A stretch of DNA of 64,000 nt, taken from Candidatus Atabeyarchaeum deiterrae. Lineage in GTDB: Archaea > Asgardarchaeota > Atabeyarchaeia > Atabeyarchaeales > Atabeyarchaeaceae. The notes under the pieces were generated by a model. It did no database searches. It saw nothing but the letters and a program-made list of their open reading frames with translations, and had not been told where the DNA came from. This document shows positions 1,751-23,361 of the stretch, one piece after another; position 1 is the stretch's first letter; every line of letters starts with the position of its first letter. The stretch lies in assembly GCA_037310415.1 (NCBI GenBank), contig CP147780.1, positions 2,208,001-2,272,000 of the forward strand, in the 5' to 3' direction. The translations under genes and the position numbers were made by a program.

Positions 1751-3784
1751 CTACAGCTTGCGCGGTCGGAAGAAGTAGAACCCTGCAAGAACCACGATCA
1801 CAGCCAACTCCGCTACTGAGATGATCAGACCGTAAGCATCCCAGAACGATGGCGGTGCCGGATAAGTGAACGTGTAGCCCGCAGCTTCTAACTCTCGTAT
1901 GGCCGCGTTTCTGAAGTCGGTTTGGCTAGTGTATCTGCGTGGTACAATGCTGGAATCGAAGCCCGCCGTCACTCTCGTGATGGGGACAGTGATGCCGTAC
2001 GAGCCGAAGCCGTTCAGCATACTGGTGATTATAGCATCCTTTGGACACAAGTATTCGATTGCACGTCTCACATGTTTGGCTGCCGCAGCGGCGTTTGACG
2101 AATTCGCTATGCCATTGGGCGTACCCAGCCCTGTCCCGACGATTGGGTGTCTCATATTGAAGCCTAAGGTCTGAACACCATAGGCATCATAATAGATCCA
2201 CTTACTCCAAGCCGAGCTGAGCTGAGACAAAGCCTGTTCAAGGTGGAACTGTGAGTCGAGCACCTGAACAGAACCCGCGTGCAGAGCTGCGATCGCTGAG
2301 GTCACATCCGATATCCAGATCACGTAGTAGTCCGTTATGCCATATTCACCTTGGCCTATAAGGGTGGCAGCGTCAAAGTAATTGGCGAATTTCGTTAGGT
2401 GGAGTGTGACTGTGCCTGCGTCATAGCTGACGAACTTGTATGGACCAGCACCGAATGGACCAATTCCAGATAGAAGTGATCCGTTCTTGCCAAAGTAGGC
2501 GTATGGTGTTCCTGCGTCTGCCGCGGCGAGGCTGTTGAACGAAGTTAGTGTCCATCTGCTAACGTTGTAGTAGCTGAGGGGTGTCCAATTGGCAAAGTCC
2601 GGTATTGTGGTACCAGCATAGAGAACGCTATTGTTCACAATTACTGAAGCTGGGTATATCGTTGAGCCTAGTATGTCTGCAGTGAAGAATGCCCACGGGT
2701 TTGGCAACGCGAAGTGAACCTCGTTGTAGTTCAAGGGCAAGCTTGCCCATTCGGTTCCGTTTTCACCAGACCAACCGAAGCTATTGTTCGAGCCAAGAAT
2801 GCTCGCTAGGTATGATTGAACAACGCATCCCCACTCGGTAACGAAACCATAGTACCTCAAGGAGTAGACGAAGTCTCTGCCATCAAGTGTTTCACCGTTC
2901 TGGAATTGGATGCCTGGCTTGATCCAGACTGTCCAGTTCTTGCCGTCGGTGGTGTGGGTGACGTTGCCGTAAGCCATGTAGGGTTCCATGAGCCAGCTAG
3001 AGTTTCTCCTGTACAAACCGTAGCCACCGTACTCGCCGAAGATCGGACCATATCCGGTCAGGTCGTAGTACGATGTGGTATGTGCTGGAGACAACTTGAG
3101 CATTTCACCAGTCTGTGCTATGACGATGCTGGATGACGGTGTGCTAGTGTAGCTCCAGTGTTCAACTCCAGGCCACAACGGATAGTGGTTCTTCTGGAAC
3201 ACGGTTGAGTTCACGTTCAGAGCCATTCCCACGACTTCCTGCGTATAGAACAATGAGATATCTACAGCCTGCTCATACTCGTACTGCTGCCATAGCTTGA
3301 CAAGAGCTAATTGCTTCGTTACGTTAAGCTCTCTTGTAATGTTCAGACATAGTGCGTCGTTGTATGGGTCGTTCCATAGGTAGTAGTTCTGCCCTGATGG
3401 CGCGTACTGGCTACTGTGGTACAAGCCATAGGGGTTGGGATCTGGGCTCATGGCGTATCCTACGAAGAGGCTGTCAAAGCCTCCCTGGGCGTAGGTTAGG
3501 CCAACTACAGCTGGCGCTGGGATTAGCGCCCTGTCGTACACGGTGCCCCAGCTTAGCAACTGTCTAATTGCGTTTATGCCCAAGTCCTTCATATTGTTTG
3601 TTACCAACAGCGCCCATTGCTGCCTCAATTGGTTAGCTCCTGGAGCTATCAGGTTGAAATCGAATGATGGATTGATCTGTGCGTATGCGGTTGCCTGCAC
3701 TGGTTGAACAAAGATGAACGGGGTTGCGATTCCTACCAGCATGAAAGAAATCAGTAAGAAACCAAGTATCTTCCTTTGTTGCAT
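1751..3784 (-). CDS. Peptide/oligopeptide ABC transporter substrate-binding protein (family 5), C-terminally membrane anchored
   Basis: Signal peptide, GAGPYKFVSY and VRRAIEY family-5 SBP motifs, C-terminal TM plus RPRKL; divergent from dppBCDF. Confidence 0.9.
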   Translation of the reverse strand: MQQRKILGFLLISFMLVGIATPFIFVQPVQATAYAQINPSFDFNLIAPGANQLRQQWALLVTNNMKDLGINAIRQLLSWGTVYDRALIPAPAVVGLTYAQGGFDSLFVGYAMSPDPNPYGLYHSSQYAPSGQNYYLWNDPYNDALCLNITRELNVTKQLALVKLWQQYEYEQAVDISLFYTQEVVGMALNVNSTVFQKNHYPLWPGVEHWSYTSTPSSSIVIAQTGEMLKLSPAHTTSYYDLTGYGPIFGEYGGYGLYRRNSSWLMEPYMAYGNVTHTTDGKNWTVWIKPGIQFQNGETLDGRDFVYSLRYYGFVTEWGCVVQSYLASILGSNNSFGWSGENGTEWASLPLNYNEVHFALPNPWAFFTADILGSTIYPASVIVNNSVLYAGTTIPDFANWTPLSYYNVSRWTLTSFNSLAAADAGTPYAYFGKNGSLLSGIGPFGAGPYKFVSYDAGTVTLHLTKFANYFDAATLIGQGEYGITDYYVIWISDVTSAIAALHAGSVQVLDSQFHLEQALSQLSSAWSKWIYYDAYGVQTLGFNMRHPIVGTGLGTPNGIANSSNAAAAAKHVRRAIEYLCPKDAIITSMLNGFGSYGITVPITRVTAGFDSSIVPRRYTSQTDFRNAAIRELEAAGYTFTYPAPPSFWDAYGLIISVAELAVIVVLAGFYFFRPRKL

Positions 3785-4369
3785 ATGTATTCCACTCGCT
3801 CCTCTCTCTCTTCTCTCTCACTTGTTTAGTTTGTAAGTATGTGGTTACTGGCTTCGATTATATAACGTTTTCCCATCGTCGCTCAGAGGATGGACTTCTT
3901 TTCTGCTTTGCCCACGCGGATTTTCGCACATGCTACCCTATCCTACCTAACCAGTTTTTCTGAGCGTCCAACAGCTAGAAACCGCTAGCGCGTGTCCCAG
4001 AGTAGTGAAAGAAACACTTTGTGAAAGCTCCCGAGCGAGGAGACGGTTCGCGCAGTAGTGAGCTGTAAGAATGCCACTTGCGTCGTGTCATCTCTGGTCA
4101 TACCAATGAGCTTGCTGAAAGCACACACCGCGAAATATGCAAAGATTTAAATATCTCTGGTCAAGTTCCATCTAACATTAGCCCATCTGTTCCATGAACT
4201 GAAGTATGCGAGGGCGAGCCTACTCAGGTTAGGCCGAATCACAAACAAGATGGACTTGCGAAAGAACGAGTTGGATCAGAAACTCAGTTTGAGGCCCTTG
4301 CTAGTTTAGCAAAAGTCTCGAGAAGTTGAACCTAAGCAAGAAGATCGGGAAGGTCGTGGTGGTTGGTCC

Positions 4370-20634: not shown

Positions 20635-21159
20635 CTACAGCTTGTATCCGATCTTGCGAAGCAGCTCTTTTCGTTCGCGAATATCTTTCTCAGTTTCAAT
20701 GCCCCTTGGCATGCTGCCATCTATCACACCAAGAATTCCTCTACCTTGATCCGTTTCAGCAACGATTATTTCTACAGGGTTTGCAGTAGAGCAGAAAACT
20801 GAGCAGACCTCTGGAACCTCCTTTATTCTGTTCAGAATGTTGATTGGATAAAAATCACGCATGAACACTATGAAACAGTGTCCGCAGCCTATCTTTGAAG
20901 CAGCCTCTGCCGCCAACTTCTTGAGTTCGTCGTCCGTGCCTGAAAGACGAACCAAACATGGACCACTTGATTCGCAGAATGCGAGTCCAAATTTGGCACC
21001 CGGGACAGCGGTCACAACGCTCTCATGAATGTCTTCCACTGTCTTAATGAAGTGGGACTGTCCCAATATCAAGTTACAATTCCTCGGAGCCTCAATCTTC
21101 ACGACTTTCAACTCCATCCCGCTCATCCTCCGCTCAAAACAGCTTACTGCCCTCTCCAA
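20635..21159 (-). CDS. Adenosine-specific kinase-like protein (DUF355 family)
   Basis: [57 protein letters not shown]. Confidence 0.85.
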
Positions 21160-21252
21160 TTGGCGCTTCTTTTTTTGTCGCTAGACTGGATTGAATAATA
21201 CTCAGCTTATAATATTTGTGAGAAACTGTTTTGTTAACTCTTCGGGTGGTAG

Positions 21253-21260
21253 TTTTTATA
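21253..21260 (+). promoter_or_regulatory. TATA box for a probably leaderless tnpB transcript
   Basis: TTTTTATA ending 23 nt before ATG 21283, just inside the left TIR. Confidence 0.55.
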
Positions 21261-21282
21261 CGTGAAATACCTCGTCTTAGGT

Positions 21283-22440
21283 ATGCAAGTAATCAAAGCA
21301 GTCAAGCAAAGCTACACGCCATCCCCCCAGTTGCTTAACCTCTTGCACGAGTTTAGGAAGATGGTGAATGATTGTATACGGGTTGGCTTGGCTGAGAACG
21401 TTACTTCGATGAAGGCTCTTTCAAAGAAGGCTTATCATGAACTTGCAAGACATGATGTGCCAACCTACTACCGTTTGACTGCGATTAGTAAAGCTGCTGG
21501 CATCCTTCGGAATTACAGGCACGCTCTAAGAAGGAAGCAGCCGAGGGTGAAGAAGCCGTATGCGATTAAGCCCATGCTCACTGACTGCTACGGTTTCAAG
21601 ATAATCAACGGCAAGCTCAGACTACCGATCAGAGCAAGAGAATACGTTTACATCCCATTGAACGCTTACGTGTTGCGGTCTATTGAGGGCCATGCTGCGC
21701 GATCAGTCTGTCTGACTACTTGCACCGTATCGGCGGCTTACTCGAAAGAAGCTACTCAGATTGAGCCTGTAGGGCTAATCGGGATTGACCGCAACCTCGA
21801 CAACGTAACCACAGCATCTTCAGACGGAAAGGTGAAACGATATGACCTGTCAAAAGTGACCAAAATCAAAGAAAACTGCAGGCAGGCTAAGCGAGGCTTC
21901 AGAAGAAATGACTACCGCATCATGAAACACCTCTATTCCAAATATGGGAGAATCCAAAAGAGCAAAGTGAATTGGATACTGCACAACGCTTCCGCAAGCA
22001 TAGTGAGACAGGCGAAAGAAGAACAGTTCGGCATAGTCATGGAAGACATCAGGGGCATCCGTAAGCTCTACAGAAAGGGAAACTGGCAAGGAAAAGACTA
22101 CAGAGCAAGATTGAACGGTTGGAGCTACGCTGAGCTGCAACGGCAAATAGAGTACAAGGCACGTTGGGAAGGTATCCCCGTGTTTTACGTTCATTCATCC
22201 AAGACTTCTTCAGTCTGCGCGATATGTGGCTGTAACATAGCTGAATGTGCAGGGAGGAAGGTCTACTGTCCATGCTGCAATAGGCTCGTGGACAGGGATG
22301 AGAACGCGGCTTTGAATATTGTCGGCGCAGGGCTGCGGTTCAGCCTGAAGGGAGTAGCAGCTGAAGCAGTGAAGGGGAACCCTGAAAAGGTAATCCTCCG
22401 AGCAGATGCCACCCAGTTAACTCATCACCCGAAGAGTTAA
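21283..22440 (+). CDS. tnpB: RNA-guided endonuclease TnpB (Cas12f-like)
   Basis: RuvC-I GIDRN, RuvC-II MEDIRGIR, Zn ribbon CAICG...CPCC, RuvC-III DRDENAALNI; catalytic D-E-D intact. Confidence 0.93.
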   Translation: MQVIKAVKQSYTPSPQLLNLLHEFRKMVNDCIRVGLAENVTSMKALSKKAYHELARHDVPTYYRLTAISKAAGILRNYRHALRRKQPRVKKPYAIKPMLTDCYGFKIINGKLRLPIRAREYVYIPLNAYVLRSIEGHAARSVCLTTCTVSAAYSKEATQIEPVGLIGIDRNLDNVTTASSDGKVKRYDLSKVTKIKENCRQAKRGFRRNDYRIMKHLYSKYGRIQKSKVNWILHNASASIVRQAKEEQFGIVMEDIRGIRKLYRKGNWQGKDYRARLNGWSYAELQRQIEYKARWEGIPVFYVHSSKTSSVCAICGCNIAECAGRKVYCPCCNRLVDRDENAALNIVGAGLRFSLKGVAAEAVKGNPEKVILRADATQLTHHPKS

Positions 22441-22557
22441 CAGAACCTGAGAAACGATGCTGACTTAGTTTGACTCGATCCTCATACTCTTTTATTAAGG
22501 GGTTAAAAGCTAATCCCTAGCATCGAAGAATAGAAAAGTATCCCAAGAAAGGCTGAA

Positions 22558-23361
22558 GTGAGTGGTGTAGTAGAAATGGGTTCGCTCGTTTTGGTCGAGA
22601 AGAAAGACAGGCTGACCAAGGTCATTCTCAATAGAGAAGATAGGAGAAATGCATTCAATCAAGATCTCTTGTCAGATCTCGGGGCTGCTCTTAAAGCGGT
22701 TCGAGACGATTCAGACTGCTTGGGGGTAATCGTGACAGGCGTAGGACCAGTCTTCTCATCAGGACTTGACCTGAAGGCTTTTCAAGACGGGTTTGCCTCA
22801 AGCCATCAAGATCCATCAGGGATTATTCGCCTTGTCCAAGATACCTTCACCGCTCTGGAGGACATGGAGAAGCCAACCCTTGCAGCAGTGAACGGTACGG
22901 CTACGGGGATGGGACTGGAACTTGCTCTGGCATGTGATTTTAGAATCGCCTCGGATGATTGCAGACTGAGTCTTCCTGAAGTATGCCTCGGCATCATGCC
23001 TGACATCGGTGGTGCTATGCTTCCAAAGCTTGTAGGTCTTGGCATCGCGAAGGAGATAGCTTTGACAGGTCAAGTGATTGATGCTCAGAGGGCCGAAAGG
23101 ATCGGACTGGTAAACAAGGTCGTTCCGCCCAGTGAATTAATGGTCGAAGCTGAGAATTTCGTCCGCCAGATAATAGAAAACAGCCCCATCGCAGTCAGAT
23201 CCACGAAGACATTGATGAACAAAGCTTTCCAATTGGATCCAAAAACGATGGCTGAGTACACAATAGACCTACAGCTTCAGTGCCTTAAGTCAAATGATCT
23301 TCTACGCTACGCAGCAAATTACATCTCAAAAAGAATCAAGCTGCCGCCGAAACCCAACTGA
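22558..23361 (+). CDS. Enoyl-CoA hydratase/isomerase family protein
   Basis: LNREDRRNA, FSSGLDL, KPTLAAVNG.A.G.GLELALACDFR, PEVCLG. Confidence 0.92.
   Translation: MSGVVEMGSLVLVEKKDRLTKVILNREDRRNAFNQDLLSDLGAALKAVRDDSDCLGVIVTGVGPVFSSGLDLKAFQDGFASSHQDPSGIIRLVQDTFTALEDMEKPTLAAVNGTATGMGLELALACDFRIASDDCRLSLPEVCLGIMPDIGGAMLPKLVGLGIAKEIALTGQVIDAQRAERIGLVNKVVPPSELMVEAENFVRQIIENSPIAVRSTKTLMNKAFQLDPKTMAEYTIDLQLQCLKSNDLLRYAANYISKRIKLPPKPN

Follow-up and report, generated by a model that had tools for sequence, protein, structure and literature searches.

The stretch of DNA analysed here, which we refer to as the window, comprises 64,000 nucleotides of the archaeon Candidatus Atabeyarchaeum deiterrae (GenBank assembly GCA_037310415.1, contig CP147780.1; G000:C1:2208001-2272000), whose genome is a single contig of 2.76 Mb. 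All coordinates are window positions unless marked as genome positions. Within the window lies a 1221 bp unit (21227-22447), found once in the host genome by a DNA search, in which tnpB forms the sole long open reading frame (ORF; 21262/21283-22440) between 22 bp terminal inverted repeats (TIRs), and which is flanked by an exact 8 bp direct repeat. We think it highly probable that this is a unit of tnpB and its omega-RNA with ends of the IS6 insertion sequence (IS) type, flanked by target-site duplications (TSDs) made by a DDE transposase, and that its partner is an IS6-like transposase. The unit and its duplication are made up as follows.

21219-21226, no strand: left copy of the TSD, TGAGAAAC, abutting the left arm; the overlap at the empty-site joint described below is the same 8 letters
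21227-21248, + strand: left TIR, TGTTTTGTTAACTCTTCGGGTG, with a degenerate tip (TGTTTTG in place of GGTTCTG)
21283-22440, + strand: tnpB, 385 aa from an ATG at 21283 (the likely start) or 392 aa from a GTG at 21262
22426-22447, - strand: right TIR, reading GGTTCTGTTAACTCTTCGGGTG inward, with an intact tip
22448-22455, no strand: right copy of the TSD, TGAGAAAC, abutting the right arm; taken, on the model of IS605 TnpB, as the predicted first 8 nt of a guide template

An earlier annotation made from the letters alone (the sequence-only reading) had described an intact tnpB as the sole gene between the inverted repeats, an 8 bp direct repeat on either side, and a left TIR without its terminal G. 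Sequence, ORF list and repeat finder agree on the first of these, and the other two are seen in the coordinates above, which for the arms were also obtained by pattern search. The arms are identical at 20 of 22 positions, the mismatches being left-arm positions 1 and 5, both T, and the stop codon of tnpB falls within the right repeat at a distance of 7 nt from its tip. The repeat finder also returned a hairpin at the right end (GTTAACTC...GAGTTAAC). In the IS6/IS26 family the repeat consensus, GGTTCTGTTGCAAA, has GG at positions 1-2 and a G at position 7 flanked by T, 8 bp duplications are the norm, and the repeats of archaeal members are longer, at least 18 bp (PMC6807381, PMC7986276, PMC8477213). 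The right end of the present unit, GGTTCTGTTAAC..., is identical to the consensus of PMC6807381 at 9/9 tip positions; these first 9 nt (GGTTCTGTT) are shared by the tips of its relatives, and one subgroup matches over 11 nt. The element thus has the GG start, the G at position 7 and the 8 bp duplication of IS6-type elements, and its 22 bp repeats at the tips and its TSD are both features that IS200/IS605 elements (including the IS1341 group) lack.

The pattern is not a matter of chance, because relatives repeat it with different 8-mers. We assembled 17 independent insertions from Asgard, Bathyarchaeia and Nitrososphaerota genomes, oriented by tnpB, all with GGTTCTGT-type tips. The duplication is exact in 14 and matches at 7/8 positions in the other three, and every one is different (for example, TATATGAA, CGTGATGC, TGGAGCTC and TTCTAATC). 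It follows that TGAGAAAC is target sequence and not element sequence. The sequence-only reading had called for just such copies, with the same TIR and different TSDs, and had named as damaging the opposite case, copies that share the TGAGAAAC flank or lack duplications, of which there is none among the 17. One family member, a paralogue whose protein is 42% identical, was found by protein search 45 kb downstream and outside the window; its element (genome 2274599-2275890; L003:1446-2737) begins 2.6 kb past the window end and lies between perfect 22 bp repeats, GGTTCTGTTACCTCTGCGGTTG, with TATATGAA on both sides. At least 15 further relatives from the genomes of Asgard archaea, Bathyarchaeia and Nitrososphaerota share the GGTTCTGT... 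ends. Several copies with 75-83% protein identity are found in the sister genus (G002 and G003; Promethearchaeati/Asgard; 'Atabeyarchaeia-1' and isolate LC30), and remoter relatives (35-61%) in Bathyarchaeia and Nitrososphaerota. Among the family members the right tip is intact in 15/17 and the left tip in 7/17, which fits an additional constraint on the right tip from the RNA described below, and loss of mobility in many copies through decay. DNA, repeat-pattern and covariance-model searches found no further copies or solo RNA modules in the host genome.

One Thermoproteota member (G115:C14; L015/L076) is 1525 bp long and has kept its repeats and an exact duplication, CTTGGCTC. Its tip, GGTTCTGTTGCG, is identical to the bacterial IS6 consensus at 11/11 positions, its tnpB ORF is broken (237 aa), and a decayed DDE remnant lies ~6.6 kb off on the same contig.

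The tnpB product matches PF07282 (7e-17, 61.7 bits) and the NCBIfam model guided_TnpB NF040570 (115.5 bits against a cut-off of 100). It has the three RuvC residues D, E and D (in GIDRN, VMEDI and DRDEN) and a cysteine-rich, CxxC...CxxC-like zinc finger, so that the RuvC triad, the zinc finger and the model matches expected of the TnpB nucleases of the systems termed OMEGA (for obligate mobile element-guided activity) are all present. The nearest solved natural protein is ISDra2 TnpB (8BF8/8EXA/8H1J; E 2e-9), and the top match of that search, 9yyg, aligned with the RuvC-III segment DRDENAALNI. The family alignment shows no variation at the D, at the E or at the first D of DRDEN, and the third-position D of DRDEN, the presumptive catalytic residue, is H in the paralogue. 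The RuvC-III motif of the paralogue thus reads DRH and not DRD, and judging by its sequence the protein may be a nuclease-dead, RNA-guided binder.

The host genome contains a single match to PF13610, the IS240/IS6 DDE domain (61.9 bits against a cut-off of 27). The ORF encodes 394 aa with SWIM and zinc-ribbon domains at its N-terminus, and its best NCBIfam match is the IS6 transposase NF033587, over the full profile, with 118 bits, just under the cut-off of 125. A pattern search placed this gene within a 6.16 kb element (genome 1515170-1521328; L012:1171-7329), whose ends (GGTTCTGTCAAG...) read GGTTCTGTCAAGTCTTCGATTG and GGTTCTGTAAAGTCTTAGGTTG and which has an 8 bp duplication, TGGATTTC, on its two sides. 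In the sister genus, G003 holds a 6.55 kb DDE element (duplication TGGAGAAC), one end of which is identical to the window copy's repeat at 21/22 positions, and a 4.4 kb DDE element (duplication 7/8) whose ends are identical to the paralogue's repeat at 22/22. Two further partial DDE elements, both on short contigs, were found among 400 genomes of the phylum. Among the complete elements, defined end to end, none contains both tnpB and a DDE gene, and tblastn detected no DDE gene within 4 kb of 46 fetched tnpB loci. Since tnpB-only and transposase-bearing units with common ends are the pattern expected for mobilisation in trans, the non-autonomous, DDE-mobilised element proposed by the sequence-only reading gains support, as does its expectation of an IS6 transposase with matching ends; judged from sequence, the IS6-like transposase would be what mobilises the unit in trans.

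The host 6.16 kb element has some additional features. A third repeat, GGTTCTGTCAAGTATTCGCCAT, follows directly upon the transposase stop and ends at L012:5492, a decayed B-type repeat lies at L012:6832-6853, and among the passenger genes are one for a ParB_N-like protein of 446 aa and one for a protein with a NOV_C domain. Elsewhere, contig C238 of G002 (L088, L109) carries an IS6-like DDE gene (727-1893, - strand) that is interrupted by one internal stop and, 1.5 kb from this gene, a tnpB fragment (3464-4058, + strand) preceded by repeat-like sequence at 3154. This may be a nested or composite unit of DDE gene and tnpB, on a short contig that ends early.

At its 3' end, tnpB overlaps what appears to be the sequence of a structured RNA. 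Two features were recognised.

22330-22346, + strand: hairpin GGGCUG-CGGUU-CAGCCU, in the tnpB coding region just upstream of the scaffold (alignment and single-sequence folds)
22349-22447, + strand: omega-RNA-like scaffold, a multi-helix fold that ends at the element tip; a covariance model matches exactly these coordinates with 106.8 bits

The scaffold was derived from an alignment of the last ~105 nt of 15 family members. An earlier alignment of 220 nt from 20 ends had given only 5 pairs with RNAalifold, since MAFFT misaligned the variable-length hairpins, and was replaced. The consensus fold comprises 6 helices with 22 pairs in total, 11 pairs show compensatory changes, and 93.3% of paired cells can pair, compared with 81.1% in shuffled alignments, a value attained by 0/500 shuffles. 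The shuffle count is not a probability, given that the sequences are related and the region is coding, and the stronger argument therefore comes from the double changes and from controls in which the 3' partners were slid by 1-3 columns, where pairing falls to 26-46%. In the 3' hairpin, sequence upstream of the repeat pairs with the inner half of the right repeat, and the two sides covary (GTTAAC with GTTAAC, GTTACC with GGTAAC). The covariance model detects held-out relatives with E values of 1e-13 to 1e-20, always ending at the element tip. In the host genome it finds the two tnpB elements only (106.8 and 39.7 bits), and it did not find the scaffold in the DDE elements. A predicted RNA that is structured, overlaps the 3' end of tnpB and ends at the element boundary, as in OMEGA systems, is thus present; no Rfam family matched 21100-22600 at E values up to 1. 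In the upstream hairpin the GGUUC loop is invariant, the stem varies among relatives in sequence and in length (5-13 bp), and compensatory codon changes surround a conserved Arg-Phe.

Two features of the flanks bear on what such an RNA might recognise.

21215-21218, + strand: TTTG, directly 5' of the left TSD copy; candidate target-adjacent motif (TAM) and/or target-site motif
22448-22463, + strand: predicted guide template of ~16 nt, made up of the duplication and right flank

Directly 5' of the left duplication, the 17 insertions have the motif YTT(G/A/T). T is found at -3 in 15/17 and at -2 in 16/17 (binomial P 5e-6 and 3e-7, respectively, against a flank T frequency of 0.34), a pyrimidine at -4 in 16/17, and G at -1 in 11/17, and there is no mirror motif 3' of the right duplication copy. 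The base at -1 tracks the tnpB clade: it is G in the clade of the window copy and in several Thermoproteota relatives, A in the clade of the paralogue (CTTA, TTTA, plus CTTA at a 6/8 site) and T in a third clade. On balance, we lean somewhat towards the motif being the TAM and the element homing into empty sites, and the predicted TAM and target of this TnpB would then read TTG-TGAGAAACGATGCTGA.

The element adjoins genes for an adenosine-specific kinase and an enoyl-CoA hydratase. In the sister genus these two genes are divergent neighbours separated by ~350 bp that contain no element; the flanks could not be aligned between the two sister-genus species, so that no sequence-level empty site was obtained from them and synteny alone is usable. 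We also placed contigs of four wetland/sediment metagenome runs on the element region. One contig of run X2, from the same study as the probable source sample, joins 21218 to 22448, skipping 1229 bp, that is, the element and one copy of the duplication. Eight letters at the joint are ambiguous, and it reads ...TATTTG-TGAGAAAC-GATGCTG..., the predicted empty site, for which the sequence-only reading had proposed to look; the joint is weakly covered (see below), and in the sister genus, too, no element stands at the syntenic position. Several other contigs track the right repeat to 22446-22449 (mostly 22447) and then diverge into different sequence, in one case the flank of the G003 copy. As these contigs leave the right tip into different flanks, close relatives of the element are present at several sites in the community. 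Two X2 contigs, from the element or close relatives, show internal deletions: 21404>22053 (648 bp skipped, CATTAA inserted) and 21260>21337 (76 bp). Such deletion forms may be intermediates in the making of miniature inverted-repeat transposable elements (MITEs).

The full explanation that we favour, and consider likely, is that of a non-autonomous unit that is mobilised in trans, takes its guide from the flank, recognises a TAM and homes. A non-autonomous insertion sequence would pack tnpB and its 3' omega-RNA scaffold between IS6-type TIRs, and an IS6-like DDE transposase from separate, larger elements with the same ends would recognise these repeats. Insertion by way of an 8 bp staggered cut would then yield the TGAGAAAC duplication. 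Because the scaffold ends at the right tip, read-through into the DNA just past it would give, by analogy with IS605, a guide made up of the duplication and right flank. If the motif is the TAM, the unoccupied allele would present the TAM followed by a full guide match and would be cut by TnpB. The occupied allele would be protected, since the repeat breaks the match at the left junction, leaving the TAM with only 8 matching bases, and replaces the TAM at the right junction, leaving a match alone; such discrimination between occupied and empty sites would amount to an IS605-like self/non-self logic. Were the cut repaired from the occupied copy, the element would be spread or retained, a form of homing. 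This explanation builds on the anatomy, the repeats and duplications of the family, the DDE partners whose ends match, the covariation of the RNA and the motif at the flank, and from these we infer mobilisation in trans, the guide, the role of the TAM and homing. The window copy itself may plausibly no longer transpose, a possibility already raised by the sequence-only reading, as its left tip has two mutations and the genome has no exactly cognate transposase; its nuclease motifs and RNA fold are intact.

A tnpB-only element would usually be taken for an ordinary solo tnpB of the IS200/IS605 group (IS1341 type), mobilised in single-stranded form by a Y1 TnpA acting in trans, with the repeats as subterminal hairpins and the 8 bp repeat as coincidence or element sequence. 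The right-end hairpin, the short conserved motif 5' of the element, which resembles IS605 targets, and a Y1 gene in the genome would all suit such an origin, which we nevertheless regard as very improbable indeed. The tips are abutted by 14 exact and all-different 8 bp duplications, the 22 bp inverted repeats are true ones and common to DDE-transposase elements, and the duplication separates the conserved motif from the element. Moreover, the host's single Y1 gene lies beside a different, unrelated tnpB (32% identity over ~100 residues), and no Y1 or serine transposase is linked to the present tnpB at the loci examined, a linkage that the sequence-only reading had listed as contrary to its proposal. 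It is also rather improbable, if less so, that the element is a fossil, once mobile and now retained by the host as an RNA-guided regulator or defence factor, with repeats and duplication as relics. The left tip mutated at positions 1 and 5, the degeneration of left tips in 10/17 members alongside the retention of right tips, RNA fold and ORFs, the presence of one copy per type in a genome with no exactly cognate transposase, and the His in place of the RuvC-III Asp in the paralogue, as in nuclease-dead derivatives, are what one might expect of a fossil. The window copy, however, retains all three RuvC residues, an empty allele seems to coexist in the population and the sister-genus site is empty, so that the insertion is not ancient, and the other flanks joined at 22446-22449 imply several insertion sites of close relatives.

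More weight attaches to the possibility that the unit is moved by a DDE transposase but that YTT(G/A/T) is a target preference of that transposase, the TAM of TnpB being different or its function unrelated to the site. The motif could be explained in this way, and the host's tnpB-less DDE element indeed has CTTG 5' of its duplication, with ATTA at two other DDE-element sides; in total, TT(G/A) is found at 3/8 such sides, too few to decide. We consider this unlikely, because the motif is one-sided relative to the orientation of tnpB and its RNA, with no mirror CAA, an asymmetry that a transposase working on symmetrical ends would not usually produce, one complete DDE element has the motif on neither side, and the base at -1 goes with the tnpB clade. 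Both readings may hold together, as in IS605, where the target motif of the transposase is also the TAM. Several other points weigh against the trans-mobilised, homing unit that we favour. The ends of the host DDE element match the window copy's right repeat at 17/22 positions only. Of five Thermoproteota metagenome-assembled genomes (MAGs) with family members, all incomplete and covered only in short flanks, three had no PF13610 gene among the results, and in the other two there were no clearly matching ends in the short flanks around the PF13610 matches. The empty-site joint comes from one contig with a depth of 4 and a shorter side of 22 nt, and none of the listed sequencing runs with the locus is recorded as RNA. 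Finally, the published rationale for TnpB, 'retention after excision', has no obvious place here, as IS6-type elements are believed to transpose replicatively and without excising.

A more far-reaching possibility, which we hold to be doubtful, is that a transposon which never excises uses TnpB as its homing drive. Replicative insertions would persist only directly 3' of a TTG-type TAM, since TnpB would cut and convert empty alleles on other chromosome copies or incoming DNA. In a stronger form, TAM-bound TnpB would steer the DDE insertion to a point exactly 8 bp downstream of the TAM, as a CRISPR-free precursor of RNA- and TAM-guided transposition. If true, either form would account for a motif on one side only, something not expected from symmetrical transposon ends.

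DDE-linked TnpB as such (IS630 and IS5 groups) is already published, and what appears to be new here is the IS6-type partner, with the caveat that the family may overlap a published DDE branch. Altae-Tran et al. (2023; PMC10691335) described six TnpB branches with DDE transposases, all with inverted terminal repeats, as well as solo tnpB copies whose ends resemble those of copies with a transposase, from which mobilisation in trans was deduced there; in a 2026 review the DDE partners are given as ISL2, IS630 and IS1031 (PMC13565253). The present element resembles these branches in that TnpB lies within symmetrical inverted repeats, the 3' end of tnpB is near the transposon end and solo copies occur. 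It differs in that its partner is IS6-like (PF13610/NF033587), which is not named there, tnpB and the DDE gene are in separate complete elements, the duplication is 8 bp and transposition is thought to be replicative. With Fanzors it shares a TnpB-type nuclease as passenger between DDE transposon repeats with target duplications, and a guide RNA that extends to the element end (PMC3627910, PMC10530073), but it is prokaryotic, a typical small TnpB with a DRDxN RuvC-III, has no Fanzor-type features and belongs to another transposon family. Like the IS1341 group, it combines a lone tnpB, a 3' omega-RNA, a short 5' motif and non-autonomy, whereas IS200/IS605 elements are without TIRs or duplication (PMC13565253). 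In common with the IS6/IS26 family, it has the GGTTCTGTT tip, the G at position 7, the 8 bp duplication and, as in archaeal members, longer repeats of at least 18 bp (PMC7986276, PMC6807381); unlike that family, it contains no transposase, its cargo is tnpB, and the partner is a 394-aa protein with SWIM and zinc-ribbon domains just under the NCBI IS6 cut-off. For the whole IS6 family, no more than two MITEs and one member with a passenger are on record in the reviews, and no tnpB (PMC7986276, PMC6807381). The paper on these Asgard genomes mentions five IS-like transposons without detail. Our literature search, which covered main texts but not the supplements of PMC10691335 and PMC11529989, found no report of a TnpB with an IS6-type partner or ends.

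TnpB is believed to owe its persistence to repairing the loss that follows scarless excision of IS605 and IS607 elements. A TnpB lineage between IS6-type ends is a poor fit to this rationale, since IS6-type transposition is believed to be replicative and a duplication is left behind, and such a lineage therefore offers a natural test of what TnpB does for its carrier. In Asgard and other archaea, the element moreover gives a prokaryotic counterpart to the DDE-borne Fanzors of eukaryotes. For this compact nuclease of 385 aa, the anatomy predicts a guide (duplication and flank) and a TAM (TTG) that can be tested directly, and, if the element is mobilised in trans, IS6-type ends would be able to move cargo without two flanking copies.

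One further feature lies between the left arm and tnpB.

21253-21260, + strand: TATA-box-like sequence TTTTTATA, ~23 nt upstream of the tnpB ATG; putative promoter element

The paralogue has TTTAAATA at the equivalent position.

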